Shown here piece by piece: positions 5,990 through 63,116 of a DNA stretch of 64,000 nt. A program made the position numbers and the translations under genes. The notes below the pieces were generated by a model. That model was given only the letters and a program-made list of their open reading frames with translations, was not told the DNA's origin and searched no databases. The stretch's first letter is position 1, and every line of letters begins with the position of its first letter. The stretch is from the NCBI RefSeq assembly GCF_963921235.1, contig NC_086108.1, forward strand, positions 56,050,001 to 56,114,000, read 5' to 3'. Source of the DNA: Mobula hypostoma. Taxonomy: Eukaryota.

Positions 5990-6128
5990 TGGTCTGATGA
6001 ATGATCTCTGCCCAGAAGGTCAATTAACCATTTCCCTCTATATATAGATGCTGCCCGACCCCCTAATTTTCTCAAGCATTTTGTGTGTTGCTCCAGGTTT
6101 CCAGCATTTGCAGACTTTCTTGTTTCTC
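5990..6128 (+). mobile_element. Degenerate Penelope-like terminal repeat fragment
   Basis: ctgatga...gatgctgcc...gcattttgtgtgttgctccaggtttccagcatttgcagactttcttg follows the same layout as the younger copies. The hammerhead motif is decayed. Confidence 0.65.
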
Positions 6129-6534
6129 TGATTGGAGGAGGGTGTGAGCCTTCTCAGAGTCCTGCGGGCATTACATAATTCTGCACCTGGCTCTGGGTAG
6201 AGGGTTCTCCACGGCATAGCTAAGACTGTCATCTCTTTTAGATGAACTTTCATCTAACAGGGGATAGAAAATACTACTACAAATTATTTGAAATGAATCA
6301 TCATTCTTTTGGATGCATGGGCCAATTGTATTTTAGGTTAGCTGTTGTTTGGAGGTATTATAAAACAAAGGTGAAGACTGTAAGCTGGATCTTCCTCAAT
6401 CTCTGAATAAAGGGCATTCTGGTTACCAGCCATAAATCATGCCTAATCTACATGGTTTTGTTTTGGTGTTCACTAATCACTTGATGAATGCTATCCAAAA
6501 TATTTTGTGCTTTGCAAAATCCAGTACAGCATAA

Positions 6535-7105
6535 TAGAATCAGAATCAGGCTTATTATCACTGACATACAGAATGTTGTGAGATTTGTTTTGTGGCAGCA
6601 GTACAGTGCAATATATTACAGAGTTATTACGAGTTAGTAGGCATCTGTTAGTCTCGTGAGACTATGGATTTGTGCCTTGGAAGGTTTCCAGGGCGCAGGC
6701 CTGGGCAAGGTTGTATGGAAGACCGGCAGTTGCCCCTCCCTCTCCATGCCACCGATGTTATCCAAGGGAAGGGTACAAGGGCCGATACAGCTTATTACAA
6801 GTTACCATAAGAAATACTATAAAAAATAATAAGCCATCCAAAAAGATAGCAAAATAGTGAGTTAGTGTTCATTGACTGTTCAGTAATCTGACGGCAGAGG
6901 GGAAGAAAGTGTTCCTAAAACTTTGAGTATGGTTCTACAGGCTCCTGTTCCTGGGTGATGTGAGACCTTAATGATGAATGCCACCTTCTTGAGGCATTGC
7001 CTTGTGAAAATGTCCTCAATGGTGGGGAGCCTAGTACCAACGATATACCTGGCTTACAAGTCTCTGCAGCTTTTTCTGATGTTATGCAGGCCAGTGCATA
7101 ACTTA
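6535..7105 (-). mobile_element. Rex1/Babar LINE 3' fragment with (ATTCTG)n tail, interrupted by a SINE-like insert
   Basis: agaatcagaatcagg tail and C-terminal coding remnants. The insert at 6637-6791 is flanked by ttattacgagtta / ttattacaagtta. Confidence 0.7.
6637..6791 (-). mobile_element. Short GC-richer SINE-like insert (possibly RTE-related) with 13-bp TSD
   Basis: Direct repeats at 6624-6636 and 6792-6804 with one mismatch. Family assignment and strand are tentative. Confidence 0.55.
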
Positions 7106-9057
7106 CCAGTCGCCAGTGCGACTCCTGTGAACTGCAGAGTAACTGATACTGCTGATATACCTTCTGGTAGGTAGGTATCAATAAGATTGAAAGTTTGGGA
7201 TAATATTCATTACAATGGTTAGAAGATTGCCAGAGATAACAGTTGCTTGTAGTTCAGATTCCAACAGGTAGCACAATACTGAACAAGTTTGTCAAGTAGA
7301 GCATCTTTGCAAAATGTGAAAGAATCTGTTCTTAATTGATATACTTTTATATTTGCAAGCAACTCTCATTTTGAACCAAATCTGAATCTGAACCTGAATC
7401 AAAGCATCTTAGATCAGCTTCCAAGAACACAATAGACAGTGACAGATCTGTGTGCAGTTTGACAGATGTCCCACCAATTTATGTTCCCTGAACATCACTC
7501 AAACCCTGTACCACCAGACAAAGCAACCCCACGATACAGGAAATTGATTAATAATTATAATAAATTTATAATTAATAAAAATAATTATTGAAGTACAGGA
7601 GACTGTAGAAATATACTTTTGGCTCATGACCACACATCTATTGTACCATTTGTAATCAATATTCCTTGAATATATTAACCACATTTTATTTTTAGTGGAA
7701 AAATATTTCTTCAATCTTTGGAACCCAATTTGAAGAAGGACTAAATCCAAGACACTGTTACATGTGAAAATAAAATAAAAATAAGGCAAATAAAAAACAA
7801 TGAATAAGTTATAATCAGATTTTTAACAGAATTTGATCATCTGTAAAACCATTCATTAGTATTAATCGTTCAATAATAATTGAATTGTTTGGTTCATAAT
7901 TTGTTTACTCTTTTCAATTTCGGTGACGCTATTCACTTTGGTTATTCAGTTTAAAAATACAGTCAGGCCGTGACTAAGTGTTGGCAGCTGCAGAAAAAAA
8001 AGTGATAAGAGATTGGTTGCCTTCCATGTTTCAGTGGAAAAATTCAGCAGAACGTGGAATGAATGACTGATTAATTATGATCACAGATTGCCAGAAGTTG
8101 CAATCAGCCTTTTTATTCCAATTGCCAGACCTAATAAACAAATAATACATAGCTACTGTATTATATCACCAGAAATGGCAAATCATGCACAGTACACCTT
8201 AGGGTATATCATCATATACTAATTATAATCACCTAGCACAGTAGCACTGTTTCATTAGGTGCAATATTATCTAAATAGCAATGTGACTCTAAATGCACAT
8301 TTATTAAAAATAAATCTTAAGAACAAAATGTAACACTTGCCTGCCTCAAGATTTTGAAGTCCTGGTTTAGTGTTGCCTTTCCTTGCACAGTGATTTATCT
8401 CCTCCCTAATGAAGGTGCGTACAAACACGTTAAACAAGGCTAGGGGATACCAGTGCAGGGGGAGGTCATTTGGCTCTAATCTTTATAACTGAAGTCCAGG
8501 CATCTAGTGGCTCCTCATGAATGAGGTAGCTTCCCACTTCTATAGCTTCACAGCAACTACAATCCTGATTTAAGAGTTAGCATTACCTACCTTAGGAATT
8601 CAAACTGCACAATTTTGTAAGTGGTCATGGATTTAATTATTTCTTTTATATCCTTCAATTAAATCGTAATACTGAGAAATTTAGCTTAGAATAAGATGCT
8701 TTCCTTCATTCCCATCAGGTGGAATGCCCATGAAAACCCTATTATAATAAACAAATACAATGTGAGATTTTCCAGAAGCTAACAGTGATCGTACCAGAAT
8801 TTTTTTTGTTAGTTCATTACAGATCAAGGACAGATGTGACGCATTAACAATGTTCCTTGCTGGTTTTACTTCAATAGAATTTTTGCTATGGTTTGTTTGT
8901 TAGCATGAATAAAAAGTTGTCACGTAACTTTCAGAGTAGAAGCTCTTATTCCTGTTCCTTAATTTCAAGTTTTCTTTTATTTTAACTAGTCCTAGCATGT
9001 CCTCCTTCCTCTTATTTCACTGTGTGGGAATCTGAAATTTATTTCCCTTTGGCAGTA

Positions 9058-9760
9058 CATACGAAGTGTTGGGGGAACTCAGCAAATCAGGCAGCAGCAG
9101 CAGCAGGTATGGAAGGGAACAAAGAGTCAATGTTTTTGCCCAAGATCCTCCAACAGGATTGGAAAGAGAAGGGGCAGAAGACAGAATGCGGAGGTGAGGG
9201 AAGGGAAGGAGTACGAGCTGGTAAGTGATATGTGAGATGAGGTGAGGGGATGAAGGAAGAAGTTAGACGATGATAGGTGAAAGGGTAAAGGACTAAAAAT
9301 AAGAAATCTAACAGGAGAAGACAATGGACCATGGAAGAAAGGAAAGGAGCAGGGAGGTGATGGGCAGGAGAAGAAAAGGGAAGCATCAAGAGGATAACCA
9401 GAAAGGGGAATGGAAAAAGAAAGATGGGGAAGGGGGTATTTACCAGAAGTTAGAGCAACCGGTGTTCATGTCATCAAGTTGGGGGCTACTCAGACAGAAT
9501 ATGAGGTTTTGTTCCTCCAACTTGGCCTCAATGGGCAGTAGGGGAGGCCATGGACAGACATTTTGGAATGGGAATATGAAGCTGAATTGATATAGTGGCC
9601 ATCAAAAGATCTTACGTTTTGTGGCAGATAGAGCAAAGGTGATTGACAAACCAGTCCCCAAATCTATGTCAGGTCTCTCTGATGTAGGAGAGGCTACACC
9701 AGGAGCATCGGATACAATGGACAACTCCAATAGACTTGCAAATGAAGTGTCACCTGTTGA
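9058..9760 (-). mobile_element. Penelope-like element 3' part (GIY-YIG C-terminus, pyrimidine-rich UTR, decayed hammerhead)
   Basis: Colinear with 58706-59450. Contains a purine-rich block and reverse-strand remnants resembling LEEQNLIFCLSSPQLDDMNTGCSNFW. Confidence 0.8.
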
Positions 9761-12547: not shown

Positions 12548-12679
12548 CGCAAATATGAGGAAATCTGCAGATGCTGGAAATTCAAGTAACACACACAAAA
12601 TGCTGGTGGAACGCAGCAGGCCAGACAGCATCCATAGGAAGAAGCACAGTCAACGTTTCAGGCTGAGACCCTTTGTTTT
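12548..12679 (-). mobile_element. Penelope terminal-repeat fragment inserted in the hAT transposase
   Basis: gaggaaatctgcagatgctgg...cagtcaacgtttcaggctgagaccc, flanked by atctt (12543-12547 and 12680-12684). Truncated within the hammerhead motif. Confidence 0.85.
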
Positions 12680-15155: not shown

Positions 15156-15569
15156 TTACATCTGAGACTGCTCCTGAGTGACATTCAGCCTGATGTTGAG
15201 AAGCTGATATCACTGCACCAAGCCCATCCATCTCATTGAAAGGTGAAAACGCAACGAAGTAGTGAATAGTTGGACTATTAATGAATGCTCTAAAATTATT
15301 GATGGAAATTGCTTTTACTGTAATTAAATAAATAATTTTATTTCTAGCTTTAAATATATTTGAATATTTTTTGCAATTACTTGTCACTGCTTTGAAATTG
15401 GAGTTCCTGTTTTTTTTCCACTGTGCATCATAAATCAACATTCTTTATAGGTTTTATATGACGGCCAGAAAGGGTTTATTCACTGAGGGTAAAACTCAAA
15501 GATAAGAAAGAAGCAATAACTCTGACACGATTATATTACAGAACTCCCAATAGTCATTGGGGCTTTGAA

Positions 15570-16950
15570 GAACAGATATGCAGACAGGTAGGGAAAGGTG
15601 TAAAAAGATGTAAAAACAAAATAACTTCCCTATGTACCTCCTCAATGCTAAGAGTGTAGTTGGGGCAAAATTTGCAAGGGGTATCCAGGAGGGTTTCTTA
15701 AATCAATATGTATATAGTACTGGGAGAGAAATGACCTTACTTTGTTGGGTCATTAGCCAAGCCAGGTGATTGATCTTTCAATGGGAGAATGGTTAAGGAA
15801 TAGTAATTACAACTCCTTAATTTTTAAGATAGCTATATATAAAGAGAAATATCAATTTTAAGGGAGTGTATTAATTTGGAGCAGGGAAAATTGCAAGTAT
15901 ATTAGACAGGAACTAGGAAGACTTAATTAGGAAGAGTTGTTTTTTGGCAAGACCCAAATGGAGGGCACTTAAAGGTCAGCTGCACAGAGTAGAGTTCCAG
16001 TAAGAGGGAAAGACCTGGATGAAAATGTAAATGGGTAGGTTAGTAAGTTTTCAGGCTACATGAAGATTGGTAGTGTTATGGGTACTTTACAAGTCTGCAA
16101 AAGGATACAGCGGGATGTAGATCAGTTGCAGATATTGGGAGAAAAATTGCAGATGGAGTTAAACCTGGCAAATGTGAAGCATTGCACTTGGGGAAATCAA
16201 ATGTAAAGAAAGAATACAATATTAATGGCAGGACTTTTAACAGTGTTGAAGTACAGAGGGATCCTGGGATCCAAGTTCATGGCTCCCTGAAAGAAGCTGC
16301 ACAAGTTGAAAGGGCGATTAAGAAGCCAAATCGCATGTTTGGCTTTATTAGTCAAAGAACTGAGTTCAAGAATCAGGAGGTTATGTTGCCACTAAAAACT
16401 CTAGTCAGGCGGTATCTGGAGTATCAGTTGCTCCATTATAGGAAGGATGTAGAGGCTTTGGAGAAGGCACAGAAGAAGATTACCAGGACGATATCTGGAT
16501 TAGAGGGTGATTACTGTAAGGAGAGATTGTACAACTTGTGTTGTTTTCTCTGGAGCGGCAGAGGTAGACGGGGATGTAATAGAAGTTTATACAATTGTGA
16601 GAGGCATAGATAGTACAGATGCCCAGTTTATTTTTCTCCAGTATGATGTGACCAGTACCAAAGGCCGCACTTTTAAGGTGAAAGGGATAAATTCAGAAAA
16701 GATATGCAGGACAAGTATTTTTCATAGAGTGGTGGGTGGCTGGAGTGTGCTGCTTGGTCTGGTGGTGGAAGCAAATATAGGAGAGATGCTCAAAAGGCTC
16801 TGAGACAGACACATGAATGTGCAGACAATGAAAGGATGTGGACATTGTCTCAGCTTAGTTGAGCATTTGATTATTAACTTAGTTAGTTCGGCAAAACCTC
16901 ATTGTGGTCCGAAGGTCCGTTTCTTGTGCTGTTCTGTTCCATGTTCTATG
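15570..16950 (+). mobile_element. CR1 LINE, degraded and internally deleted
   Basis: ORFs 16182..16613 and 16507..16803 carry CR1 RT C-terminal motifs (MHLG, RDPGIQV, KTLVRRYLEY, GDVIEVY). Tail tgttccatgttctatgt. Confidence 0.88.
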
Positions 16951-17387
16951 TTGCCCCAGTGGATTGCATGCTAGGATTTTAATGGAAGTGGCTGCAGAGA
17001 TAGTTGACAATTGATTGTAAAATTTCATAACTTACTAAACTCCAGGAGGGCATAAAGGGGTTTTATTGCATTTATATAGATTGTGTTGAGACCTCATCTG
17101 GAGTATAGTCCTAGTACCCTTACCTAAAAATAAATTAATAACATTGGAGGCAGTACAAAAGAGATTTACCTGCTAATTCCTGGGATGAGAGGATTGTTCA
17201 ATCAAGGGAGATTAAATTGTTTGAGTCTGTATTCGTTAAAATGTGGAAGAATGACGGGTGAACTTGTCAAAACATACAACATCCTAAGGGAGCTTAACAT
17301 GGTAGAGTGTGGAATGTTTTTGATTATGTTTTGTAACTCCAAAACATAAAGCTAATTGTGAGGGAAAAAAAAGGTGGGAGTTTAGGA

Positions 17388-17744
17388 CACAAACGCGAGG
17401 AAATCTGCAGATGCTGGAATTTCAAGTAACACACATAAAAGTTGCTGGTGAACGCAGCAGGCCAGGCAGCATCTCTAGGAAGAGATACAGTTGATGTTTT
17501 GGGCCGAGACCCTTTGTCAGGACTAACTGAAAGAAGAGATAGTAAGAGATTTGAAAATGGGAGTCCCTCCTGTCTTCTCCTATCATTTTGGATCGCCCCC
17601 TCCCCCTCCCACTTTCAAACCTCTTACTATCTCTTCTTTCAGTTAGTCCTGACGAAGGGTCTCGGCCCGAAACGTCGACTGTACCTCTTCCTAGAGATGC
17701 TGCCTGGCCTGCTGCGTTCACCAGCAACTTGTATGTGTGTTGCT
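17388..17744. mobile_element. Penelope fold-back insertion (arms about 17425-17563 and 17606-17744) with 12-bp TSD
   Basis: The arms are near-perfect reverse complements. TSD gggagtttagga / gggagttcagga. A 37-bp extension is present on one arm only. Confidence 0.92.
17645..17680 (+). ncRNA. Minimal type I hammerhead ribozyme motif, intact, on the SGIP1 sense strand
   Basis: agtc-CTGACGA-a-gggt-ctcg-gccc-GAAA-cg-TC|gact. Stem I agtc/gact, stem II gggt/gccc, palindromic ACGT mini-stem III. Predicted cleavage after C17676. Confidence 0.8.
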
Positions 17745-17916
17745 GGGAGTTCAGGAAACTTATTTTAGTTTGGTTTTTACTTTAATCAAGGCGCGTACAT
17801 ATGTGGTGGCATGATGGCACATGCAATTCGTACGCTCTCAGATACTGTAAAACCCATGATGCATTGTGTAAACAACAAAGGATACTTAATCAAACAATAT
17901 ATTGACGATATACTCA

Positions 17917-18052
17917 GGTCCTGCTGAAGGGTCTCGGCCCAAAACATCGACTGTACTTTTTTCCATAGATGCTGCCTGGCCTACTAAGTTCCTCCAGCAT
18001 TTTGTATGTGTTGCTTGGATTTCCAGCATATGCAGATTTTCTCTTGTTTGTG
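17917..18052 (+). mobile_element. Penelope terminal-repeat fragment with mutated hammerhead core
   Basis: ctgctgaagggtctcggcccaaaacatcgact...ttccagcatatgcagattttctcttgtttgtg, with a degenerate duplication of about 21 bp on the flanks (17896-17916 and 18053-18074). Confidence 0.85.
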
Positions 18053-18180
18053 ACTATATTTACAATATTACTCAAATGTTACTAAATATTAAATGCGCAA
18101 CAGTTTTCACTTGTGGGAGAGTTATGTACAAAGGACCATAACTATGAGATAAAGAGCTGGTCAGTTAAAATTGAGGAATG

Positions 18181-19710: not shown

Positions 19711-20840
19711 CAGTGGATTCTGATTAATTGGGACACACCGGAACCAGTATATTTTGGCCCAATTAAGTGGCTTTGTTGAAATAGTATCATTTTATAATTC
19801 ATAATTATATTGCAGCAAGTGAATTATTGATAGGATGTTTCTATTAAGAAGTAACACATCCTTCTCAGTAATCAAGAGGCATAGGGGGAAAATTTGGAAC
19901 AAATTTCTAGCATTAACTGTTTTCTTTATATTAAAAAGTAAATAACAAAATCTTGTTGATATCAAATTTGGAATGATCTTTTGACCAATGCTGTTTGTGC
20001 ATTTCTCAATATTTGGAAAATAATAAATATTTTGAGAGTTATAATTCAAACAGTTCTGCCAATGTGGCAATCCACAGAAAAAGGGTTTAACTGATTCATG
20101 AATATCAAGAAACAACAACAGACTGGCAACCCAATCACAAACAAGAGAAAATCTGCAGATGCTGGAAACCCAAGAAATGTCAACTGTACTCTTTTCCATA
20201 GACGCTGCCTGGCCTGCTGAGTTCCTCCAGCATTTTCTGTGTGTAGAACAGACTGGCAGGGGCTCCCCTCCCTTTTCTGATCTTTCCTAGATCTTGCACT
20301 GAAGTACATTTTGCGGTAAGATTTTTAAGCTGTGCCTAGTCATTGGCACAGAGGGTTGTGGAGAGCTGCAGATAATTCATGGTTGGTGTCTTTGTTACAG
20401 ATGACGTGACTATATCAAGACAGTGCAGAAAGGGTTCCTTATTATCTCCCCGGCAGCGTGATCAGTGACTCATACAAGGTTACAGATGAGAACTGCTGGC
20501 AGCTTGCCAGCACTTTATTCGAGGAGTAATAATCTGGATAATGGATGTTTGAAAGCTCTCCTTCTGTGACAGATTTCCCTATAAATCCTTTTTAATGTTC
20601 AAGCACAACATTCTGCTTCCAGGAGAGATCACCGATTAAGATCAACAATGGTTCCGGGATTGCCATTCCCTGAAAATATTTAAACTCAAATCTTACGAGC
20701 TTTATGTGTTGAACTTCAAAATCACCCTTTGAATCAGGAAGCAATAACCAAATTAATGTGACAAAAGAAAACAATATCTCCTAATTAAGTAGGCAACGTA
20801 ATTTTAGATAGCTGCCCAGATGAAAGATGGGGCATTTAAA
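19711..20840 (-). mobile_element. Tigger/pogo-like transposon remnant
   Basis: ta-cagtggattctgattaattgggac terminus related to the one at 18181. Reverse-strand YFPN...SIGQKIIPNL resembles the DDE_1 FLPPN...QPLDQGII motif. Confidence 0.5.
20134..20245. mobile_element. Short bipartite Penelope insertion (inverted tail plus direct repeat segment) with 12-bp TSD
   Basis: acaaacaagagaaaatctgcagatgctgg (minus orientation) is joined to gaaatgtcaactg...ccagcattttctgtgtgt (plus orientation). aacagactggca occurs at 20117-20128 and 20247-20258. Confidence 0.85.
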
Positions 20841-22690: not shown

Positions 22691-22724
22691 ATGATTATGG
22701 CACTCAAGCATTCAACCAACAAAC

Positions 22725-25050
22725 AGGCAAGTGACGATGAGCACTTGAGGAACTGAGTGCCATAATCAGTAACAATGAAACAGCATATCCTGATGTCGGT
22801 CACATTGTAGTTGCAGACTTAAATCAGGCTAGCTTGTAGAAGTCTCTGTCTAATTATGATCACATCACCTGCATAACCAGAGGACCCAACAGATTTGACT
22901 GCTGCTCTAGCAACATCAAGCACGCCCACTGCTCTATCTCTCACCTGCATCTGGGTAAATCTGGTCACCTGGCTCTGCTTCCTCAGCTTGCGAAGAGGAT
23001 TATGAAGAGCTGTGCGGCAGAGGAGGAGGAGGAGGAGTGAATTCAAGACTTCTTTGTGTCAGTGGACTGGACAATAGTCAACGATTCATTAGCGAACCTA
23101 AACTAAATGAATATGTTGCAATTGTCACCAACTTCTTAAGGATATGCAACTAGTGTGTGACCACAAAGACATTCCGAGTCTTCTCCAACCTGAAACTGGG
23201 ATGAACCAAGAGACCTATAATCTGTTGAGGGCTAAACTGGACTGAACTGGAATTACTATTGATGCTTGACAGCTAAGACAGGGCTTGGACAATATAACTT
23301 CCTACAAAGCAAGATTAGGTAATATAAGCAGCAAGACACATCATTCCCAGATGAACTCAGTATCTTTTATATACACTTTCATAGGGAGAGCTATGACACA
23401 TGAGCCACCACATCTCTGTATGACCCGTAATCTGAGTCTTTGAGGCTGAACAACTAAAAAAACTTGGGCCTCTGCACCTCCCTCTGAAAATAGATACTTG
23501 AGTTCTTCATTGCAGACCTCAGTCAGTGAGGATTGGGAACATCTCCCCCTCACTGACCAGCAACACAGATGCCCTCAAGTCTGCATGCTTACATATGATT
23601 GCATGACTAATTACAGATCCAATGCCAGATACAAATCTAGGGTGGTGATGAGTCAGCATATAGAAACGTAGCAAAGCTGGTTCAGTTGTTCCACAGCAAC
23701 AACCTTTCACTCAATGTCAGTAAAACTAAAGAATTGATTGTTATCTTCAGGAAAGGGGGAAACATAGAAACATAGAAAACCTACAGCACAATACAGGTCC
23801 TTCGGCACACAAAGCTGTGCCGAACATGTGCTTTACTTTAGAAATTACCTCGGTTTACCCATAGCTCTCTATTTTTCTAAGCTCCATGTACCTATCCAGG
23901 AGTCTCTTAAAAGACCCTATTGTATCCACTTCCACTACCATTGTCAGCAGCCCATTCCACACACTCAACACTCTCTACATAAAAAATTTACCTCTGACAT
24001 CTCCTCTTTATCTACTTCCAAGCACCTTAAAACTGTGCCCTCTCGTGCTAGCCATTTCAGCCCTGGGAAAAAGCCTCTGACTATCCACACAATCAATGCC
24101 TCTCATCATCTTGTACACCTCTATTAGGTCACATCTCATCCTCTGTCGCTCCAAGGAAAAAAGGCAGAGTTCACTCAACCTATTCTGATAACGCACGCTC
24201 CCCAATCCAGGCAACTTCCTTGTAAATTCCTGGCAACATCCTTGTGAAGTGAAACAAATATGTGCCGGTCTACATTGGTGGATCACTAGTTGAGAGAGTC
24301 AGCAGCTATAAATTCCGGGGTATTAACATATCAGATGACCTGTCCTGAGCCCGGTTGATGCTGTCACAAAGACAGTGTCTTGACTTAGAAGTTAAGAAAG
24401 ATTGACATGTCACTAACAAACTTCTACTAATCCTGTTGAAAGTACACTAACTGGTTGCAACGTCAACAATTCCTTTCTTCCCACACTGATGCTGCTCGAC
24501 CCTCGATGAGTTCCTCCAGCAGCTTGCGAGTAACAGGTCGGGTACAACAATTCAAATGCACAGGAACGTAACAGGCTGCAAAGAGTATAGACTCAGCCCA
24601 GTTCATTGTGGGCCCATCCCTCGCCATCATCAAAAATGTTCACATGAGGTGCTGCCTCAAGAAGGCAACGATCATTAAAGATCCCCAGCACGAAAGCCAT
24701 GCCATCTTCTCTCAGCAATTATCAGGCAGAAGATGTAGAAGCCTGAAGCTGCACACCACAAGTTCAAGAGCAGCTACTTTCCTTCATCCAACCAGTCTTC
24801 ATAACTCTCATCACCATCTCTGAATAGCAACACTTGTGACCACTATTAACATCTTGCACTACAATAGGCTGGTTTTTGTACTAATTGTGTACTTTCTTGT
24901 ATAAGATTATATAATTTAAGTTTAGTTTGTGTTTCTTTTGCAGGTGTTATGCATCTGATTGCAGTGCCTGCAATGCTGCTGCATGTTTGTCATTGCACCT
25001 GTGCATGCATGTACTTGGGCCTATGACAATAAACTTGACCTTGACTTTGG
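22725..25050 (+). mobile_element. Old Rex1/Babar LINE with deletions, interrupted by a CR1
   Basis: Endonuclease remnant (VVADLNQA), LNVSKTKELIV, IIKDPQH...SGRRCRSL and a (CTTGAC)n tail. Confidence 0.72.
23760..24245 (-). mobile_element. Young CR1 3' end with (TTTCTATG)n tail
   Basis: ORF 24008..24286 (LFSLERQRMRCDLIEVYKMMRG...TRGHSFK). Very similar to 34560-35040. Confidence 0.93.
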
Positions 25051-48650: not shown

Positions 48651-48700
48651 TATAATAAATATGATTAGTTAAGAGGCTAAAAGCAATTTAACATGATGGA

Positions 48701-48939
48701 AACACGAGGAAATCTGCAGATTGTGGAATTTCAAGCAACACACAAAAACGTTGCTGATGAACGCAGCAGGTCAGACAGCATCTCTAGGAAAAGGTACAGT
48801 CAACGTTTCGGGCCGAGACCCTTCGTCAGGATATCATTCGTCCTGACGAAGGGTCTCAGCCCGAAATGTCGACTGTACCTCTTCCTAGAGATGCTGCCTG
48901 ACCTGCCACGTTCACCAGCAACTTTTTTGTGTATTGCTT
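48701..48939. mobile_element. Penelope fold-back insertion with about 99-bp arms, a 9-nt loop and back-to-back hammerhead cores
   Basis: Arms 48733-48831 and 48841-48939. TSD ttaacatgatgga / ttaacgtgatgga (48688-48700 and 48938-48950). Confidence 0.92.
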
Positions 48940-50660
48940 AACGTGATGGATTTGTTTTTCTAGATTGAAAATGTGACTCAAACAATTAAATTACAAACAC
49001 AGATTCCACAGTTACAGCTTTAAATTAATAAAACAATGCTTTTAAAGGTGTCGCTGGAATAGAGAGAACAGGGATTTGCATCTGTAAATTTCTGAAGTTG
49101 TCAGGACAAGTTACAAAGGCTGTTCAAGAAAATAAAAGTGATTAGAATTTTATTAATAGAATACAAAACTCTGCTTAGGTCTCAGTGCCATCCAAAAGAG
49201 TATTTAGATCAGGACAACACATTACCTTGATGCAGGAGAGGTTTATTGAGGACAACACCAGGGAAGAAGAACTGCAGTTGGATGGATAGCAGAATACTGA
49301 GGTTGTTCTCAGAGCAGGAATGGTTGGAAGAGGCTTTGTACCATTTGATGAAATAAGAAAAAGCCACTTCAATAGCACAATGATTGGTAATCAACAATCT
49401 TAAAGTTAAGCAGATTATCAAGAGAACCAGAGATAAAGTTAGAAGAATTGCTGTGATCTGAAATGCTGGCCTTTCTGAAAGTGCTTCTAGTCTGGCAGAT
49501 TGGTGAAAAGAATTTTAATTACAACTTTCAAAAAGAATTTAATAATATTTAAACATAATTTTTATGGGATCATAAGGAAAGAACAAAGTAGAACTAATTG
49601 TGTGGCTCTTCCAAAGAGCTATGCAGAGTGCATCAAATATTTTTTTTCTGTAATGTAACGTTCTATGACATGATAATTTCTATTCCATTGAGTTTAATTT
49701 TTCTCTTTCATCTGTACCACTCAAAACTAAATTAAACATTTCAAACCAACTCCAATCAACAGGATATTGAGAAATTGAAATGATAATATAAATGGGATGA
49801 ACTACATTTCAGGGAATTGGATCCATTTCTTATAGAACATAGAACAGTTCAGCACAGTGCAGGCCCTTTGGGTCGTAAAGTGCCGATTTTTTAACCTACA
49901 GCATTTGAAGTTGAAGGAGGTGGATTTCAGTGTCACTCATTTATATCTACAACATAGATAAAGTAAGCAATTAATTTCTACCTCAATATGTCTCACCCAG
50001 AAGTTTCTATGAATATCATTGGCCACAATTTCTCTGAAACCTGTGAATGGGTTTGCAATGACATGCTTCCAGTTAACATTTCTCATTGTGCAGTTGGTCA
50101 TTTTACATTCATACTTGTGCTAAGGTGCTGGATTCAGTTCAAAGTGTTAATAGTCATTACCTATGTACAATATATCCACTTGCAACTAAATTAAGTTATT
50201 ACTATTTAAGAATCATGCTTCCTTGCTTAAAGGTTAAAACCTGGCAACATACTGAAACAAACCAAACCAAAAGCACTATGTAAATATTATACTTTCAACT
50301 AATCTGATTAACTATCTCATTACCAAAAACACTGTAAAGAGTGGGAAAGAGCTTGTTCATATCAGCATTTCTTGAAAAGAACAACTTTTATGGTGCAGTG
50401 TGGGACGTCAAATAAGAATTCAGAATAAATTTCCTGTAAATTGAGTGAAGGGGATGGATTGATTGAGGATGGGGACATAGGGATGATGTCACCATGTACG
50501 GGAAAGCAAAGATATAAAGAGTGCATTTAAATTATTAAACTGGTAGAGCCAGTGCATTTCAGAGAGACAGCCAAATATTTAAGAATAATTGTATGCAAAG
50601 GCATGTCTCCAACTTATCTGTCCCATTTAAGGTTTTCACATTTATAGATTCCAAAATGTG

Positions 50661-54150: not shown

Positions 54151-54175
54151 CAGCAATTACCTAGTTTAGATTCGT

Positions 54176-55028
54176 AAACACAAAATAATCCGCAGATGCT
54201 GGGGTCAAAGCAACACTCACAACACGCTAGAGGAACTCAGCAGATTGGGCAGCATCTGTGGAAAAGATCAGTCGACATTTCGGGCCGGAACCCTTCGTCA
54301 GGACTGCAGAAGGAAGAGGCAGAGGCCCTATAAAGAAGGTGGGGGGAGGGTGGGAAGGAGAAGGCTGGTAGGTTCCCAGTGAAGAACCAGTAAGGGGAAA
54401 GATAAAGGGGTGGGGGAAGGGAGGCAGGGAGGTGATAGGCAGGAAAGGTGAAGAAAGGATAGGGGAAAACACAGTGGGTAGTAGAAGGAGGCGGAACCAA
54501 GAGGGAGGTGGTAGGCAGCTGGGGGAGGGGGCAGAGTGACATAGGGATAGGGGAAGGGAGGGGGAGGGAATTACCGGAAGTTGGAGAATTCTATGTTCAT
54601 ACCAAGGCAACACCTCATATACCATCTAGGTAGTCTCCAGCCCCTTTGTATGAACATAGAATTCTCCAACTTCCGGTAATTCCCGCCCCCTCCCTTCCCC
54701 TATCCCTATGTCACTCTGCCCCCTCCCCCAGCTGCCTACCACCTCCCTCTTGGTTCCGCCTCCTTCTACTACCCACTGTGTTTTCCCCTATCCTTTCTTC
54801 ACCTTCCCTGCCTATCACCTCCCTTCCCCCACCCCTTTATCTTTCCCCTTACTGGTTTTTCTCCTGGAACCTACCAGCCTTCTCCTTCCCACCCTCCCCC
54901 CACCTTCTTTATAGGGCTTCTGCCCCTTCCCCCTGCAGTCCTGACAAAGGGTTCCGGCCCGAAACGTCGACCGATCTTTTCCACGAATGCTGCCTGACCT
55001 GCTGAGTTCCTCCAGCGTGTTGTGAGTG
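54176..55028. mobile_element. Large Penelope fold-back insertion with about 390-bp arms and a 35-nt spacer
   Basis: Arms 54213-54607 and 54643-55029. The spacer and right arm read QHLIYHLGSLQPLCMNIEFSNFR* (GIY-YIG C-terminus). TSD tagtttagattcgt / tagcttagatttgt. Confidence 0.95.
54269..54306 (-). ncRNA. Hammerhead ribozyme motif in the left arm (core intact, stem III ATGT variant)
   Basis: Reverse complement reads cagtc-CTGACGA-a-gggt-tccg-gccc-GAAA-tg-TC-gactg. The right-arm copy at 54936-54972 has CTGACAA (G8>A). Confidence 0.65.
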
Positions 55029-55818
55029 TAGCTTAGATTTGTTCTGGTTTTGTCAACTAGATATACCTGTGTAATATTTCACACACTCAGATAGAAAATT
55101 CATATTGAAACAAGGCTCATTCTGGAATACAAATCTTCAGCTTAAGTATTATCCTGCCCAGTGATCTTTCCAGTACACTTAGCCATTTCTTAACATCTCA
55201 TAAACAGTACTGGTAAATTATTTTGTGAATTACAAGTTGTAACTGATAACCTAACTCTACGGCTTGAAATAATTGCAAAAGTTTTGGAAGTGTAGTCTCA
55301 ATTAGAATTTCAATTAAATTGAACATATTGAGGGGGTGATAGGGCTGGGTAGGGAATCTAGGAATCTTCCCAGTGTGTGACTTACGCTGCTAAGGACACC
55401 AGGCATAGCATTATCAGCAAACTCCCTTCACATTACATAACTCACTGACCTGGAAATGCATGAGTCCTTCTTTACCACCATCATTTATCTCCCTCCCGAT
55501 GCATCGTGGGAGACCGTTCATTTCAAGCAGTACAGCAATCCAAGAAGGCGTCTCATCACACCCTCTCAAGGAAAATTAGTAAAGGGCCTTCTCTGTTGAC
55601 ATCAGCAGCAATGCCCACATCCTGTGAGAGTATCAAGGAAGGGCCTGAGAATCTGCTCTACTGTCCTCTATTTATGAACCAGGCATGGCAGTGTAGCAGC
55701 TGCTTTGCTTTCCTATTTTAAATAATGAACAAAATGTGTCCGTGGATGAAGCTGTAGGAAATCACTAACGGTTAAATAGCTTCCTAACTTTTCATTCTGT
55801 TACTTGTCTGATTTTCAG

Positions 55819-55876
55819 AATTCCCCCGAAGTTGATGATGAAGGATACAGTATCAGGCCAGATGACAAATCAGGTT
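55819..55876 (+). CDS. SGIP1: SGIP1 58-nt exon: NSPEVDDEGYSIRPDDKSG(S), containing the FCHO/SGIP1 DxEGYSIRP motif
   Basis: ctgattttcag| acceptor. The exon ends at the U12-type donor |ATATCCTTT, and the frame joins the next exon through the AT-AC junction. Confidence 0.92.
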
Positions 55877-57827
55877 ATATCCTTTTGATATCAGTTGGCA
55901 CAGATGCTGCCTGCTCTAGTGCTTGGTTTATCATTTTCTGTTTTCCATCATAGATTTCCTGTATCCTGTTTTCTTTTCATTTGTTGTCATTGTCAAAAAT
56001 GCACTGAGGATATTGTAGTTTTGATGAACTGCTATAAGGTGGGTGACATTCCATTACAGGTGTACGATTGGTGAAAGCATTTCCATTTAGGAGATTGTCA
56101 CCATTTTTCAATGTTCGGCCTTTTAATGAGATGTAGGATTTCAAAATATTAAATGCAGCACCAGTTTTCTTGTAAACATTATTTGAAAACTCCATTAGCA
56201 CCTTATTAATGTTGGTTATTTTTACACTCCACTTTATTTTTCCCTTCTGACTGGTGATACTGACTCATGCTAGAAGAAAATTTCACAGGCACAATTTCCT
56301 ATCCAGTAACTCTTACGCACACAAAAGGAACATCTTGGGAAATAGAAACAGAAGTAGATACTGGATGGCACCTTGGGCCTGCTCTTTCATTCGGTAAATT
56401 CACGGTTAATCCTGTTCTGTGGGTCACATCCTCTTATTTACTTAACATCCAGATTTAATATTCTCAGCCTTCTTCCTAAAAGTTTTACAAGCTTCTGCAT
56501 AAAAACATCTGTTTATAATGCAGAGGTCCCTTAATCCTGAGCCCACACCCTCTGCTTTTAGTCTCAACCAGAAGAAATTGCCACTTGCTAATTACCTTGT
56601 CAGTCCCTCTATTAATGTGGTGTATTTTGTTCAGATCAGCTGAATTCTAATGGGTAAAGGGCAGTTGTAGTCTGTCTTTCCTTAACGGAAAGACCATGCA
56701 CTTCTGCAACCAATGTGTGCTGAACTGATTCCACACAAACACTCACTTTTCTAGATACGGAGATCAAAACTGCAGTCACCAATTGCCACGAAGCTGTTGT
56801 TCAATCACAGCAAGACATCATTACTTTTCTACTCCAACCACTTTGCCATAAAGACCAACATGTGTTTGCTTTCCAAACATGCGGCTTACATGAATCTGTA
56901 CACTGAGATTCCTTCGTATATCATTTGCCTGTCCAGCACTTACATTTTCCAGCAAGGGTCTGATTCTTATTGTACATTCTAAAACTGTGATATCCTGAAG
57001 TATTGAAGAAATATGAAAATTATTATTTCTCAGCAGAAACTCACATTTGAGATTCATGTTTATTAATCAGAGGTACCATGAGATGTGTATCCCCTGTCTA
57101 CCACCATTTACTCAATCCTACCACACCGTGGTCCCAGTTGTCTAGCTAAACATGAGTTGCAGCTGCAGATACTTAAAAAGAATGAAGAAAAGTGGTGGCT
57201 TATCACAGGCAGCCAAAACTTTCTAAGGGGCTTTTGGAATAGTTTAACGCCAGCAGTAGTCGGCTGAATTAGGTCTGTCTAGAGCTCCCTCATAAAAATC
57301 AGGGGAGCAGAGCAGTGAACATGTAGCACTCTTGCAATTCTGCTTTAACTTTAGAATGTACAAAACCACCGCGTATGAGCTGAGTATTCCACAGCATATG
57401 GCAAAGTATCTACTGCAAAGCAGTTGCATGCTGTGTGCTCACTGGATCAAATAAGTTTGCTTTTGACCATTGTAGTTGACAAGGTAGGAATTAAGGAGGG
57501 AGAATATATTTGTCAGATTACCCCTTTATTATCAGTCACCAGAAGTGGCCTGTCTATTTCTGTTTGTTTACAGTACTCGAATTAGTGTGATTCCTGATCA
57601 ACGTCCTTATCACTTAATGAGAAAGGAACCTAGAAGTTTAGGATGCCATGGTAAGAAGATTGTGAGAGAAATGAGACTGCCACTTTATTATGATTTGCAG
57701 CAAATTCTTCAACCATATTTTCTACACAGTACTGATTACTAACCCCTCCATCTGTTCATGTTAATTGGCATTGTAAATGCTTTACAGATACTGTCCCCAC
57801 CCCCAATCCCTGTCTTCAAGATACCGC

Positions 57828-58702
57828 ACTTTGTGGCCAAGTTTGAAGATGATATAATGACAGGTGGAAGGACAGGTTGTACTGATAAAACAGGGAGGCT
57901 GAGAAAGGACTTGGATAGGTTGAGAGAATGAGCAGATGGAATATAGTGTAGAGAAGTGTTTGGTCATGCACTTTGGTAGAAGGAATAAAGGCATAGACTA
58001 TTCTCTAAATGGGGAGAGAATTCAGGAATTGGAGGTGTAAAGATTCCTTAAAAGCTAACTTGCAGACTCAGTCAATAGGCAGAATGTAAATGCAATTATA
58101 GCATTCATTTAAAGAGGACTAGAACATAAAAGCAAAGATATAAAATCTCAGCATTACAAGGCATTAGTCAGACCACATTTAGAGTATTGCGAACAGCTAA
58201 GGACCCGCTAGCACTGCAGAGGGTCCAGAGGAGATTCACGAGAATGATCCCGAAAATGAAAGGGTTAATGCATGAGGACAGTTAATGACATGGCATTTAG
58301 GAGATGAGGTTGGGGGGAGGGCAAGATTTCATTGAAGCCTACTGAATATTGAAAGGCAGGGATAGAGTGGGTGTAGAGGATTTTTCTAGTAGTGGGGGAA
58401 TTTAGGTCTAGAAGCCACATCCTCAGAATAAAAGGACATCCCTTTTGAATAGAGATGAGGAAGGACTTGTTTAGCCAGAGGGTGGTGGATCTATGAAATT
58501 CACTGCTACAGATGGCTGCAGAGGCCAAGTCATTGGTTACATTTAAAGTAGAGGTTGAAAGATGTTTTTCAGTAAGGATGCCAAAGATTACGGGGAGAAG
58601 GCAGGAGAATGGGGTTAAGAGGGAATAATAAATCAGCCGTGGTCAAATGGAGGAGTACACTTGATGGGCTGAATGCCCTTGTTTTGTTCCTATATCTTAT
58701 AG
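57828..58702 (+). mobile_element. CR1 LINE 3' part, degraded
   Basis: VAKFEDD, LVMHFGRRNKG, LVRPHLEYC and the 3' UTR ending cctatatcttat. Confidence 0.85.
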
Positions 58703-58705
58703 CGT

Positions 58706-60160
58706 TAAACACAAAGGATTCTGCACATGCTGGAAATCCAGAGCAACACACACAAAGTGCTGGAGGAACTCAGCAGGTCAGGCAGCATCTATGGAAATGA
58801 ATAAACAGTCGACGTTTCAGGCCAAGACCCTTCATCAGGACTGAAAAGGAAAATAGAACATGCCAGAATAAAAGGTTGAGGGAAAGTGAAGGAGGACAAA
58901 CTAGAGGGTGATAGGTGCAGCCAGGTGGGTGGGGGAGGGGATGAAGTAAGAGGATGGGAGATGATATGTGAAAAAAGCAAAGTGCAGGAGAAGGAGGAAA
59001 CTGATAGGAGAGAAGAGGAGACTGTGAGAGAAAGGGAAGGAGGAGGGTTTCCAGCAGGAGGTGATAGGCAGGTGAGGAGAAAAGTTAGGAGTCCAGAGTG
59101 GGGAATAGAAGAAGAGAGAAGAGGGACGGAAAGGAGAAATTACCAGAAGGAGAAATCAATGTTCATGCCATCAGGTAGGAGGCTACCTCCACCCTGAGAG
59201 TGGCCTCTTTGTGGCAGGACAGGAAGCCATGGACCAACATGTTGGAATGAGAATGATGATAGGAATTAAAATGCTTGCTCACCGGGAAGTTCTGCTTTTT
59301 GCAGCCTGAGCGAAGATGCTTGACTAAGCAGTCCCCCACCCTACATCAGGTCTCACCAGTGTGAGAGGCTGCATCCAGAGCACTGGATACAGTAGAGGAC
59401 CCCAAGAGATTTGCAGGCAAAGTGTTACCTCACGGGGAAGGACCCTTTGGAGCCCTGAATAGATGAGGTGAATGGGCAGGTGTAGCATTTCTGTTGCTGG
59501 CAAGGACATGTGCCAGGAGGAAGATTAGTGAGGAGGGACGAATGGACAAGGAAATCCTGGAGGGACTGAACACTGTGGAAAATAGGTGTTTGGTGGTAGA
59601 ATCCCACTGAAGACGGTGGAAGTTGCGGAGAATGAGGTGTTGGATGCAGAAGCTCATGGGGTGGTAGGTGAGGGCAAGAGGAACTCTGTCCCTGTTAAGG
59701 CAGCAAGAAAATGGGGTGAACGCAGATGTGCGGGAAATGGAGGCGATGCGGAAAGTTTCAGTAATGGAGGAAGCGAATGCCAGGAGTTTGAAGAAGGAGA
59801 ACACCTCTGATGTATAGGAAAGGGAAGCTGCATCCTGAGAATAGATGCAGCGGATACGAAGGAACTGAGAAAAGGGAATAGCATTTTTACAGGACACAGG
59901 GTGGGAGGGGGTATAGTCAAGATAGCCATGGGAATCGGTAGGCTTATAAAAGATATTGATAGACAAGTTATGTCCAGAGATGGAGACAGGAAGAGAAAGA
60001 TGTCAGAAATGGATCAATTGAATTTAGGAGCAGGGTGCAATTTGGAGGCAAAGTTGATGAAACTGACAAGCTCAGCTTGGGTGCATGAAGCAGCACCAAT
60101 GCAGTTATCATGTAGAACAGAAAGATTTGGGGAGCATAACCAGGGAAGCTTGGAACATGG
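58706..60160 (-). mobile_element. Longest Penelope-like element copy: RT C-terminus, GIY-YIG endonuclease and terminal repeat (pseudogenised)
   Basis: Reverse ORFs 60014..60199 (DNCIGA, FINFASKLHP) and 59430..59966 (FYKPTDSHGYLDYTPSHP, AIPFSQFLRIRCI), plus CYTCP and GIY-YIG remnants. Confidence 0.93.
58806..58843 (-). ncRNA. Hammerhead ribozyme motif (intact core)
   Basis: Reverse complement reads cagtc-CTGATGA-a-gggt-cttg-gcct-GAAA-cg-TC-gactg. Confidence 0.72.
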
Positions 60161-61227
60161 ATTTATAGTTTTCTGTTGTTGCCTCCTCTCAGGCAACATT
60201 CACCTTCTGCCCTGCCACTCAGATTTCAACATCTTCACAAGAAACCCACTTGTGCTTCTGAACATGATATATGACTACAATATCAATCTGCATTATTTTG
60301 CATGGTTGACCAAAACCATTCTGTTCCTGTATCACCTCTCCTTTGTTCAGTTTAGTCCAATAGCCATCAACAGTAATATATCTGCAAGTTACTTAAACCA
60401 TTTGCATGTTGAGCCTTCAAACTGCCAGACTGAATGACCGTGACGATATTACATTGCTGTAAGGAAGGCACACTACCTTGACTCCACTGTGCAATCAGGT
60501 ATGAGAATATGAATAAGTTCACAAGGAACAGCATGTCCATGTTTTAACGTACACTACACTTTAATCTTCCCAGTTTTTCCCAGAACATATAAAGTAGCGT
60601 ACTCTCTACTGAGTAACATTATGCAATGAATCCCTTTAGAATGCATTTGTACTCTCCTTCCTTCTATGACTTATGCATTCCCTTTATGCAGAATCATCAT
60701 GGATGATAACTAGTTCTACCTAAATCCTTAAGGCCTCTTCTACTCTAACTTCAGATGACTTGATGTTAACCATTCTTTAATAAACTAAAGTCTTCTGCAG
60801 CAAAACAGTGGTAGGATTAAAGATATTTACTTTAAATTAAGAGAAGGATGGAATACTCAAACAGAATATCCTTTCTGTTAGTTCCATTCTCCTTGCTATG
60901 CTTCAGGTTGAATTGGACTGTTAAAGACTTCAGATCCGACTCAATCCTGAGATGAGCTCTATGTGTAAGCACACACCATGACAAACACTGTTTACTTTCA
61001 ATCTCATTGTTTCCTCCTCTGCTATAAACATCCCTCCACAGCTGAAAACCTTGTTTGTTCCTTTGACTTCTCCAAATTGTGCTACCTTGCCAGTTTTTAA
61101 CACCATTCTGTGGAAATTTCAATTCTTACTATATCCTACCACAAATTATATCTCCAATCAAGACTCTCACCTGTCATTCCTGCTGAAAGTAGTTAGGTTT
61201 CAATCCCCAAATATTTAAAATTCATGA

Positions 61228-61676
61228 AACATACATCAAAGTTGCTGGTGAACGCAGCAGGCCAAGCAGCATCTATAGGAAGAGGCGCAGTCGACGTTTC
61301 AGGCCGAGACCCTTCGTCAGGACTAACTGAAGGAAGAGTGAGTAAGGGATTTGAAAGCTGGAGGGGGAGGGGGAGATGCAAAATGATAGGAGAAGACAGG
61401 AGGGGGAGGGATAGAGCCGAGAGCTGGACAGGTGATAGGCAAAAGGGGATACGAGAGGATCATGGGACAGGAGGCCTAGGGAGAAAGACGGGGGGGGTGG
61501 GGTGACCCAGAGGATGGGCAAGAGGTATATTCAGAGGGACAGAGGGAGAAAAAGGAGAGTGAGAGAAAGAATGTGTGCATAAAAATGAGTAACAGCTGGG
61601 GTACGAGGGGGAGGTGGGGCCTAGCGGAAGTTAGTTGCTTGAATTTCCAGCATCTGCAGAATTCCTGTTGTTTGCG
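61228..61676. mobile_element. Penelope insertion: about 405-bp minus-strand repeat plus an inverted 43-bp tail, with a perfect 14-bp TSD
   Basis: tttaaaattcatga at 61214-61227 and 61677-61690. The right end gttgcttgaatttccagcatctgcagaattcctg is in the opposite orientation. Confidence 0.92.
61289..61324 (-). ncRNA. Hammerhead ribozyme motif (intact core) inside the U12 intron, antisense
   Basis: Reverse complement reads agtc-CTGACGA-a-gggt-ctcg-gcct-GAAA-cg-TC-gact. Confidence 0.75.
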
Positions 61677-63116
61677 TTTAAAATTCATGATGTCACTCTC
61701 CTACCCTGTCACCATCACCACATCCATTCCTCTCACCGATCCATTGAAGTATTCCTTACTCCACCAAGGTCAGCTGTGTCTTTGTACAAACACACGGGCA
61801 GACAAATCAGAAATAGGAATGGACCATTTGGCCTCTAAAGCTGAATAAGAGTGTAATTGATCTGGTTGTAGCTGCTTGCTGGCGTATTGGCAGTATCTTT
61901 CATCCCTTTGCTTAGCTAGAATCTGTCTACCTATTCAAAGATTCTGTTTATATTCCTCATTGAGAATGAGAGGTCCAAACTTTACTTCATCCCTATCTCA
62001 CAAGGGGACCTTTTATTTTTAAACGGTGACCTTTGGTTTTACATTCTCTCATGAGAGGAAGAATCATCTCCACATCCACTGATTCAATTCCCCTCAGGAT
62101 CTTATAGATCTCAATCAAACCTGCTCTCACACTCTTTTAAACTCCAGATGCATGTCTTATCTGTCCCATCTTTCCTTAGAAAGCACCCTGCTAAACTAAA
62201 TTATTAATCAAGTAATCTTTATCTAAACTGCTTCCAGGCAATTATTGTCCATCCCTCATGTGCATGTGCCCCATGATTTGAAATGCCTTATCTATATACA
62301 GTATTTCCAGCTCCAACTCTGATGTAAGAATACTTATCAATTACTGTTTTGTTATGCCCTCCTGCTTTCTTCTTTGGCTCACACAAAAGCTTTTCCTTAC
62401 TCACTCAACAGTTTGTTCTGCTTATTAAACGAGGGAGAACAAAATGTATCGTAGAGAAGCAATTGGAACTGGAGAAGGCAAAAGATGCTTGTCCAAGTCC
62501 CAGCTTGAGGCATTATGTCTCTTCACCTGATATCACTTCCAAAAGCAGCCTGCTTACTCAGGCTTCTTAACTTATTTGACAGCATTCTGCAGGCTACATA
62601 TCTTGGCTGAGCCATGCCCAGTCCCAAAATACAATCAGCCTGGTATTCACTGATCGTGGCGGGGAAACAATTAACAGTAGCAGGCAGCAAGAATGGTGGA
62701 AAAGCTTCTCAAAATGCAGCACATCCACTTCTTCCTGTCACCTGCTTGGCTTGAGAGGCAGTAGATAATCTCCAGACCCAGGCAGACACAATGCCTAGCC
62801 AGCCTTTCACTGTCCATTGAAGTTGGTAAGCTGCCAACCACATTGAGATTTGGACTCCAACATTTTTTTTCTCTGGGCTAAATCTGGGCAGTGTCACCAG
62901 TGCAGTCATTAGTTATCTTCCAAGATCTTCTAAAGTGGTCACAGTCATAGTACAGGACCCTGACACAAGTCAAACAACCTGAAGGCATGTAGAAAAGGGA
63001 CGCAGCATGTGTTATTGAGGAGAGGAAAGCAGCAGGACTGAATTAAAATTCATATTTGACTGTTTAGCTAATCTGTTATGTGTCATTTACAAAAATAATC
63101 CTTAATGACATTTCAC

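Follow-up and report, generated by a model that had tools for sequence, protein, structure and literature searches.

How does a retrotransposon come to lie in a genome as two copies of itself joined head to head, with a short extra tail on one of them only? The question is raised by a 64,000-nucleotide stretch of Mobula hypostoma (NCBI RefSeq assembly GCF_963921235.1, contig NC_086108.1, positions 56,050,001 to 56,114,000 of the forward strand; hereafter the window), in which a Penelope-like retrotransposon (PLE) forms five such cassettes. One cassette was found to have arrived in a single event, and in all five the two arms were probably primed separately, each by one end of the cut target. 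Positions are numbered from the first letter of the window.

A first-pass annotation had listed ten copies of a terminal repeat (5990, 9058, 12548, 17388, 17917, 20134, 48701, 54176, 58706 and 61228). These positions are used here as names, and comparison of the window with itself found the repeat again at every one. Searched with a terminal-repeat profile trained on ten arms, the window yielded 16 hits with E<1e-3, spread over 11 loci, and one weak hit, 17 in all; the eleventh locus is the decayed fragment 24459-24531. Six of the 16 strong hits lay outside the training set, and five shuffled windows searched with the same profile gave 2 hits (best E 0.32). The family occupies ~7.5% of the window. 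On the sense strand each copy reads as a pyrimidine-rich 3' region, a hammerhead motif, ~60 nt leading to a GT-rich end ("site 1") and an optional tail.

The copies were assigned with near certainty, on sequence features, to a dead-on-arrival, 5'-truncated and very abundant endonuclease-bearing (EN+) PLE of Neptune type from cartilaginous fish. The longest copy (58706) holds the broken remnant of an open reading frame (ORF) on the minus strand, as is its hammerhead motif. The longest open piece of this remnant, 59430-59999(-), matched 4 of 752 candidate proteins at 50-52% identity; the four carry names from Chiloscyllium and Hypanus. These shark and ray homologues (P0001-P0004) align with the window over 59094-60181 and have RVT_1 and sub-cutoff GIY-YIG matches (P0002: GIY-YIG Pfam score 21.7 against a cutoff of 22.6). 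Through them, the order of reverse transcriptase (RT) followed by C-terminal GIY-YIG, by which EN+ PLEs are recognised, was found in the remnant 59094-60181(-); a Pfam search of the window's own ORF remnant gave no match, and the identity rests on the homologues. A CX4CxxC linker is in frame in the remnant and also in P0002 and P0003, and the GIY-YIG domain has internal cysteines. A CX2-5CxxC linker is the mark of Neptune and Nematis and is absent from Penelope and Poseidon (PMC8557442). The linker and the RT/GIY-YIG homologues therefore point to a Neptune-type PLE of cartilaginous fish, an assignment taken from the linker motif, which Nematis shares, and not from a tree. The Penelope-like affiliation proposed at first was thus borne out by RT, linker and GIY-YIG remnant. 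Neither an intact ORF nor a full-length copy was found in the 64-kb window. Summed read depth was 0.9-5.3 million over terminal-repeat bins, 19,000-55,000 over the ORF remnant and 12-35 over unique flank in run X2; depth is not copy number, and the contrast shows a very abundant, heavily 5'-truncated family. It is probably an uncatalogued member of a known clade; Repbase, Dfam or the PLE papers of 2001-2006 may hold the family or its geometry.

In all five cassettes (17388, 20134, 48701, 54176 and 61228) two arms meet by their 5' ends and point both 3' ends outward; one arm stops at site 1, and the other continues to where the tail ends. The first description of a tailed and a tail-less arm in opposite orientation was therefore accurate for every one, with tails of 34-45 nt, and the mark of an EN+ PLE insertion, an optional 30-40 bp tail at one end together with an inverted 5'-truncated copy, was present in 5/5. 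No two junctions are alike and they are spread over three subfamilies: one inserted base in 17388, a shared G in 20134 and in 61228, 8 nt of filler in 48701 and 0-1 shared bases in 54176. Junction palindromes of 15-38 bp were sought at the five cassettes and none was found. Three cassettes carry 97-398 nt on both arms. The tail-less arm reaches further 5' than the tailed arm in 4/5 (by 35-400 nt), and the arms share a common end in the fifth (48701). In 20134 and 61228 the tailed arm is tail only and stops 1-5 nt from the start of the other arm. In 17388 and 54176 the lead of the tail-less arm (41 and 35 nt) approximates the length of the tail (38 and 34 nt), and the two complementary DNAs (cDNAs) are therefore equal in length to within 3 nt (176 against 179, and 432 against 433 with an 8-nt indel counted).

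The cassettes are bounded by target-site duplications (TSDs), whose significance was assessed against 1500 random position pairs. Duplications of 12-14 bp, as first reported, were upheld for four cassettes: 12 bp exact at 20134 and 14 bp exact at 61228 (each 0/1500), 13 bp with 1 mismatch at 17388 and 12-13 bp with 1 mismatch at 48701 (both p 0.0007). That of 54176 is weaker and can be read as a core of 10 bp, or as 14 bp if 2 mismatches are allowed (p 0.008). At 20129-20135, 7 extra bases lie between the end of the tail and the TSD of cassette 20134; they resemble both the tail start and the post-tail bases of copy 5990, and may mean either that read-through went further or that a second tail begins there.

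Contigs from four runs were compared with 54610-62000 at 80% likeness. Run X6 represents another organism, at ~2% divergence (58 differences over 2953 nt); X10 stands at ~8% (214 over 2752 nt). In both, a single contig passes from 61213 to 61677 contiguously and keeps one copy of the TSD; the missing 463 nt are the 449-nt cassette 61228 and one 14-nt TSD copy. Because of this precise empty site in two relatives, both arms of cassette 61228 arrived in one event, either after the X6 and X10 lineages had split off or as a polymorphism. Cassette 54176 seems to be present in X6, where the contig begins inside the cassette, as it does in X2. It would be absent from X10, judging by a 5464-nt contig that aligns only from 55029, its left flank lying beyond the compared stretch. 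The cassettes are not an assembly artefact, since their arms differ by 5-10% in sequence and the insertion at 61228 is cleanly absent from the two relatives.

In the mechanism that we propose each cassette would be built anew at insertion. The element protein would nick both target strands 10-14 bp apart and extend both 3' ends; reverse transcription from one end would begin where the tail ends, and from the other at a fixed position 34-45 nt upstream of there, and the two cDNAs would then be joined head to head by 0-1 nt of microhomology or a short filler. In vitro, the protein of an anole PLE, a predicted dimer, nicks and extends both target strands, starting at two RNA sites that bracket the tail (PMC11167929). 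What the cassettes themselves record is insertion in one event, 3' ends that face outward and are of two fixed kinds, and junctions that are unique; that each target end primed one arm is what these features would suggest, and the two-primer step is judged probable. Integration by two primers or by a template switch had both been put forward initially. The former agrees with a single event at an empty site; the latter does not agree with the arm lengths.

Template switch and fold-back may be taken together: a single primer is used, and the second arm is made by self-priming on antisense RNA or by the nascent cDNA switching onto itself. Antisense self-priming was proposed for head-to-head PLE repeats from junction palindromes in a rotifer (PMC3846280), and the symmetric ends and filler of 48701 would suit fold-back. 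A strand that folds back re-copies only its own content, however, so the tail-less arm should be the shorter at its 5' side; it is the longer by 35-400 nt in four cassettes and equal in one, and fold-back is disfavoured on that account. The four longer ones contradict it unless one more template jump is assumed. The reverse order of synthesis cannot yield the tail, and the 15-38 bp palindromes are missing here. Fold-back is held to be very improbable.

The first-pass annotation had further suggested that the short cassettes might be mobilised whole as non-autonomous units, and had named unique breakpoints in every cassette as the sign against it. The five junctions in the window are unique across three subfamilies, and the cassettes do not look like mobile units. 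Such units, resembling retrozymes or MITEs (miniature transposable elements with inverted repeats), would be transcribed and re-inserted entire; PLE terminal repeats can move other DNA in trans (PMC3846280), and vertebrate PLE-derived retrozymes exist (10.64898/2026.07.22.740005). The reads offer one feature in the same direction: a joint from 61324 to 61634 stands at depth 286 in X6 against 43-48 in single-copy flank (~6x), which may mean several copies and hence a small family elsewhere. Among the joints listed, however, the same tail-only geometry also occurs with other breakpoints (61317 to 61648 and 58817 to 61639). Two hammerheads on opposite strands preclude a dimer in cis, the transcript would be one long hairpin, and retrozymes are described as head-to-tail tandems (10.64898/2026.07.22.740005), whereas all five cassettes are head to head and the window has no tandem unit. 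Mobilisation as a unit is accordingly rated as highly unlikely. A fixed internal site for priming finds support in the loose ends: of the six places listed for each of the 3 DNA runs, two or three fall at 58742-58748, which is site 1, the tail-less 3' end. Joints and loose ends at 58795, 58797, 58842 and 58851, where the reference copy diverges from the other subfamilies, were left out, as were opposite-strand joints to 61643, which were taken as ordinary tailed copies.

The TSDs were found to resemble the tail. The far TSD copy, which cannot derive from site 1, agreed with the start of the cassette's own tail, in register, at 29/61 letters (shuffle mean 14.9, p 3.5e-5; random window mean 15.7, p 2e-4; reverse strand 18/61). 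The near flank compared with the tail start gave 29/60 at register 0 and 7-19/60 at seven shifted registers. The internal start may be aided if the target overhang pairs in part with the beginning of the tail. A repeat, which we take to be a LINE-like 3' end, has three copies in the window (42354-42733, 48271-48648 and 58317-58670), two of which lie 0-45 nt from the tails of 58706 and 48701.

That both primers copied the same RNA, by twin priming with a fixed internal site, is the likeliest of the readings, at about even odds. It is hinted at by the tailed arm never passing the tail-less arm (5/5), by arms that abut at the internal site in 2/5, which is the layout of L1 twin priming, by near-equal cDNA lengths in 2/5 (17388 and 54176) and by the likeness of TSD and tail. 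On a single RNA the tail-primed enzyme would trail the other. It would stop at the second start in 20134 and 61228, would follow by strand displacement and halt with the leader in 17388 and 54176, leaving equal arms, and would catch up at the leader's stop in 48701.

Several observations count against copying from one RNA. The cassettes number five, and testing came after the patterns had been seen in them. Permuting arm pairs keeps the order in 16/120 cases and gives at least two equal-length pairs in 6/120, which is weak support, and three sub-cases are required for five cassettes. The in vitro start site is reported to be without homology to the cleaved DNA (PMC11167929). The flank behind the tailed arm, used as a control, also resembles the tail start (20/60), the solo tail-less copy 9058 matches it at only 2/12, and an endonuclease that prefers tail-like DNA could yield an equal signal. 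Finally, the arms of 54176 (54210-54607 and 54643-55032) differ at 3/191 inner and 18/199 outer positions (p 0.001), which possibly reflects later conversion near the hairpin centre or two templates.

Two templates would be expected if a dimeric protein brought two transcripts and each target end copied a different one, starting at the tail end in one case and at the internal site in the other, before the cDNAs were joined head to head. The outward 3' ends, the single TSD and the empty site are fitted equally well by this scheme, simultaneous synthesis would also produce equal lengths, and the outer halves of the 54176 arms do differ by 9%. Left unexplained are a tail on exactly one arm in 5/5, a tailed arm that never passes the other and two that stop 1-5 nt from the other's start. 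The arms of 17388 are also closer to each other (3/94 non-CpG differences) than to the young copy 61228 (5/93 and 7/91). Two RNAs are considered unlikely, at perhaps one chance among several. Later conversion belongs to another scheme, in which junctions were reshaped after insertion, palindromes losing their centres by hairpin deletion or being homogenised, and arm lengths would be no record of synthesis. The identity gradient in 54176 and the 8-nt filler with symmetric ends in 48701 are of the kind expected. Reshaping is silent on the origin of the two arms, however; in 17388 as in 54176 it would have to leave an unpaired spacer that belongs to the tail-less arm, of 41 and 35 nt beside tails of 38 and 34, and cassette 61228 is young (absent from a ~2% diverged relative) with almost no palindrome to delete. 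This explanation is judged improbable.

The two-primer reading on a single RNA may tentatively be taken a step further, to a form that we think possible and rather less than probable. The cassettes could be footprints of the two reverse transcriptases of one PLE dimer working in tandem on a single RNA, one tail length apart, the trailing enzyme displacing the leader's cDNA and the target overhang pairing loosely with the tail start. The tail would then be the distance between two start sites. If true, the tandem dimer would account at once for the existence of a tail, for its restriction to a single arm and for the head-to-head repeats that all PLEs have. A twin-priming or tandem-dimer reading of PLE inversions was not found in print, in a search outside which lay the main PLE papers of 2001-2006.

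The terminal repeat also carries a hammerhead motif, CTGAYGA-a-GGGT-loop-GCCY-GAAA-cg-TC flanked by AGTC and GACT. The motif had been described correctly, and it is intact on all counts in 3/11 spanning arms (17644-17681+, 58806-58843- and 61288-61325-), where conserved core, helix I, helix II, palindromic 15.2-16.2 and the extra base after A9 are all in place; the breaks in other arms are mostly CpG-type transitions. Over 9 aligned arms 91% of cells are paired, against 12-48% in slid controls. The first-pass annotation had pointed to covariation in the stems, and of 9 pairs none changed on both sides, 3 changed on one side and 4 were invariant, in copies that are close kin decaying neutrally and so of low power. 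The recommended Rfam scan of the window gave 12 matches at E<=5, none of them to a hammerhead; they were to microRNA hairpin families only, all below gathering scores, and lay on the hairpin centres of cassettes 17388 and 54176.

The hammerhead would be a passenger of the terminal repeat, unneeded for the geometry. The two motifs of a cassette lie on opposite strands, and therefore no dimer can form in cis. In structure prediction, RNA from cassette 17388 collapses into a single hairpin (-265 kcal/mol, z -26), inside which both the ribozyme and the tail-less start site are hidden. For these two reasons the ribozyme can neither explain nor serve the cassette. In Schistosoma the monomer is reported without cleavage and dimers with low cleavage (PMC4209133), and PLE hammerhead cleavage is described as protein-assisted and unnecessary for insertion in vitro (PMC11167929).

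Arms starting at the ribozyme cut were also considered and rejected: 0/13 defined 5' ends fall at the predicted cut, the nearest (20174) being 8 nt upstream. The 13 are the ends of non-tail arms; two tail-only arms and the unfixed 5' end of copy 58706 were omitted. Five 5' ends (48831, 48840, 17918, 5990 and 12676) lie within ~10 nt of the 5' edge of the motif, where a pyrimidine run ending in AG is present in three subfamilies. The cluster may mark a point where reverse transcription halts, the end of an RNA or a splice site, or may reflect nothing more than pairing in helix I; the D. virilis intron is reported to end at the 5' end of helix I (PMC4209133).

The coordinates of all features are collected in the table. 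Of five single-arm copies tested for a duplication only 17917 was positive (p 0.008); its length of ~19-20 bp was obtained by comparison with two paralogous empty sites. These belong to an AT-rich repeat with three copies (17775-18111, 33269-33512 and 37569-37823), the first of which holds insertion 17917 and has cassette 17388 at its left edge. Pattern scans for further copies gave 0 matches in viral contigs, metagenomes and prokaryote genomes. In viral contig L001 (2001-2019, minus strand) 19 letters are identical to a piece of the repeat's conserved part, probably by chance.

Table. Copies and cassettes of the Penelope-like element in the window
Feature	Position	Strand	Remarks
Decayed single arm	5990..6125	+	Broken hammerhead, 3' end and tail; no TSD found
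Old 5'-truncated tail-less copy	9052..9755	-	GIY-YIG remnant; no TSD found
Single tailed arm	12548..12676	-	Truncated inside hammerhead core; no TSD found
Cassette 17388, left TSD	17375..17387	.	13 bp
Cassette 17388, tailed arm	17388..17563	-	176 nt, 38-nt tail; hammerhead CpG-decayed
Cassette 17388, tail-less arm	17565..17743	+	179 nt; 41 nt further 5' than tailed arm
Intact minimal type I hammerhead motif	17644..17681	+	In tail-less arm of cassette 17388
Cassette 17388, right TSD	17744..17756	.	
Single tailed arm	17918..18054	+	From hammerhead helix I, in AT-rich repeat; duplication ~19-20 bp (17898-17916 / 18055-18074)
Cassette 20134, left TSD	20117..20128	.	12 bp exact
Cassette 20134, tailed arm	20129..20174	-	46 nt, tail only (45 nt); outer 7 nt element read-through or repeat of tail start
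Cassette 20134, tail-less arm	20174..20246	+	73 nt; begins inside hammerhead core; one G shared at junction
Cassette 20134, right TSD	20247..20258	.	
Further decayed fragment	24459..24531	+	Extra to first list; profile E 1e-4
Cassette 48701, left TSD	48688..48699	.	12-13 bp
Cassette 48701, tailed arm	48701..48831	-	131 nt, 34-nt tail; ends in hammerhead helix I
Cassette 48701, junction filler	48832..48839	.	8 nt
Cassette 48701, tail-less arm	48840..48937	+	98 nt; 5' end equal to that of tailed arm
Cassette 48701, right TSD	48938..48949	.	
Cassette 54176, left TSD	54162..54175	.	10-bp core 54166-54175; 14 bp with 2 mismatches
Cassette 54176, tailed arm	54176..54607	-	432 nt, 34-nt tail; extends into last ORF codons
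Cassette 54176, tail-less arm	54608..55032	+	425 nt + 8-nt indel; 35 nt further 5'
Cassette 54176, right TSD (core)	55033..55042	.	
Longest copy (58706)	58707..60181	-	Broken ORF remnant (RT end, CX4CxxC linker, GIY-YIG), pyrimidine-rich 3' region, intact hammerhead 58806-58843, tail; 5' end not fixed
Cassette 61228, left TSD	61214..61227	.	14 bp exact
Cassette 61228, tail-less arm	61228..61633	-	406 nt; intact hammerhead 61288-61325
Cassette 61228, tailed arm	61634..61676	+	43 nt: 38-nt tail + 5 nt; abuts 3' end of other arm, 2-3 nt overlap
Cassette 61228, right TSD	61677..61690	.	Sole copy remaining at empty site in two relatives

Other elements were noted in the window. An inverted repeat of a different family (21036-21175 / 21473-21612) has arms of 140 bp, 93% identical, around a ~300-bp spacer, and an AT-rich inverted repeat of 60 bp, 81% identical (51003-51064 / 51214-51273), is possibly a decayed MITE. 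Non-long-terminal-repeat retrotransposon remnants lie at 33678-34088 (+), 21918-22397 (+) and 16074-16613 (+); their Pfam matches are RVT_1 (E 7e-14) and ALKBH8_N-like (E 4e-11), the third (16074-16613) being without a significant match. An open frame at 28055-28483 (-) has a weak, below-cutoff match to the retroviral envelope family PF00429 (E 2.5e-4).

PLE ends that bear a hammerhead, and inverted insertions tailed on one side, are already in the literature (PMC3846280, PMC8557442, PMC4209133). The typical Penelope structure, as given for Pen2a_Av, has an inverted pseudo long terminal repeat (pLTR), a 31-bp tail on one inverted repeat and a 9-bp TSD (PMC3846280). A one-sided PLE tail of 30-40 bp is described elsewhere, its origin being called undefined (PMC8557442), and inverted terminal repeats of variable size are described together with a repeat of 34-37 bp, 34 bp in D. 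virilis (PMC2377424). The cassettes share with EN+ PLE inverted insertions the head-to-head arms, the tail on one arm, the single TSD round the whole and the strong 5' truncation. They differ in that most copies here are without an ORF, TSDs are 10-14 bp instead of the 8-10 bp of rotifers, junctions have 0-1 nt of microhomology or filler in place of rotifer palindromes of 15-38 bp, and two cassettes have a tail-only arm. With the Neptune clade the family has in common an RT followed by a CX4CxxC linker and a GIY-YIG domain with internal cysteines, but its TSD-defined targets are not microsatellites.

The hammerhead resembles the minimal type I motifs of PLEs (PMC4209133) in its CUGANGA and GAAA core, the extra base between 9 and 10.1, G10.1-C11.1, the palindromic 15.2-16.2, the lack of loop III and a helix I of 4-5 bp; helix II has 4 bp, whereas 7-8 bp are given for the Schistosoma families, whose hammerhead pairs lie 100-700 bp apart on opposite strands (PMC4209133). 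Neither "shark" nor "skate" occurs in the main text of that paper.

The anole Poseidon element PAc, studied in vitro (PMC11167929), likewise has two start sites bracketing the tail and has both strands cut and extended. It belongs to another clade, inverted insertions are not discussed in that paper, and it is described with no homology between start site and cleaved DNA, in contrast to the partial match of TSDs and tail start seen here. For L1 twin priming, two target ends on one RNA are described as giving a 3' piece and an inverted upstream piece within one TSD (PMC2912911), and cassettes 20134 and 61228 have exactly this layout; the present cassettes depart from it in their fixed internal site and their lack of poly(A), and three of them have 97-398 nt in duplicate, once on each arm. 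The formation of the cassettes works like twin priming; the element is not L1.

What the window adds is an empty site and three small, testable regularities that bear on mechanism. The origin of PLE inverted repeats is stated as open in PMC8557442 and PMC3846280 and was left unaddressed by the only in vitro system, that of PMC11167929. Many short two-armed insertions, together with the empty sites of relatives, form a natural data set, in which arm order, arm-length difference and TSD-tail likeness taken together would separate the one-RNA, two-RNA and fold-back models.

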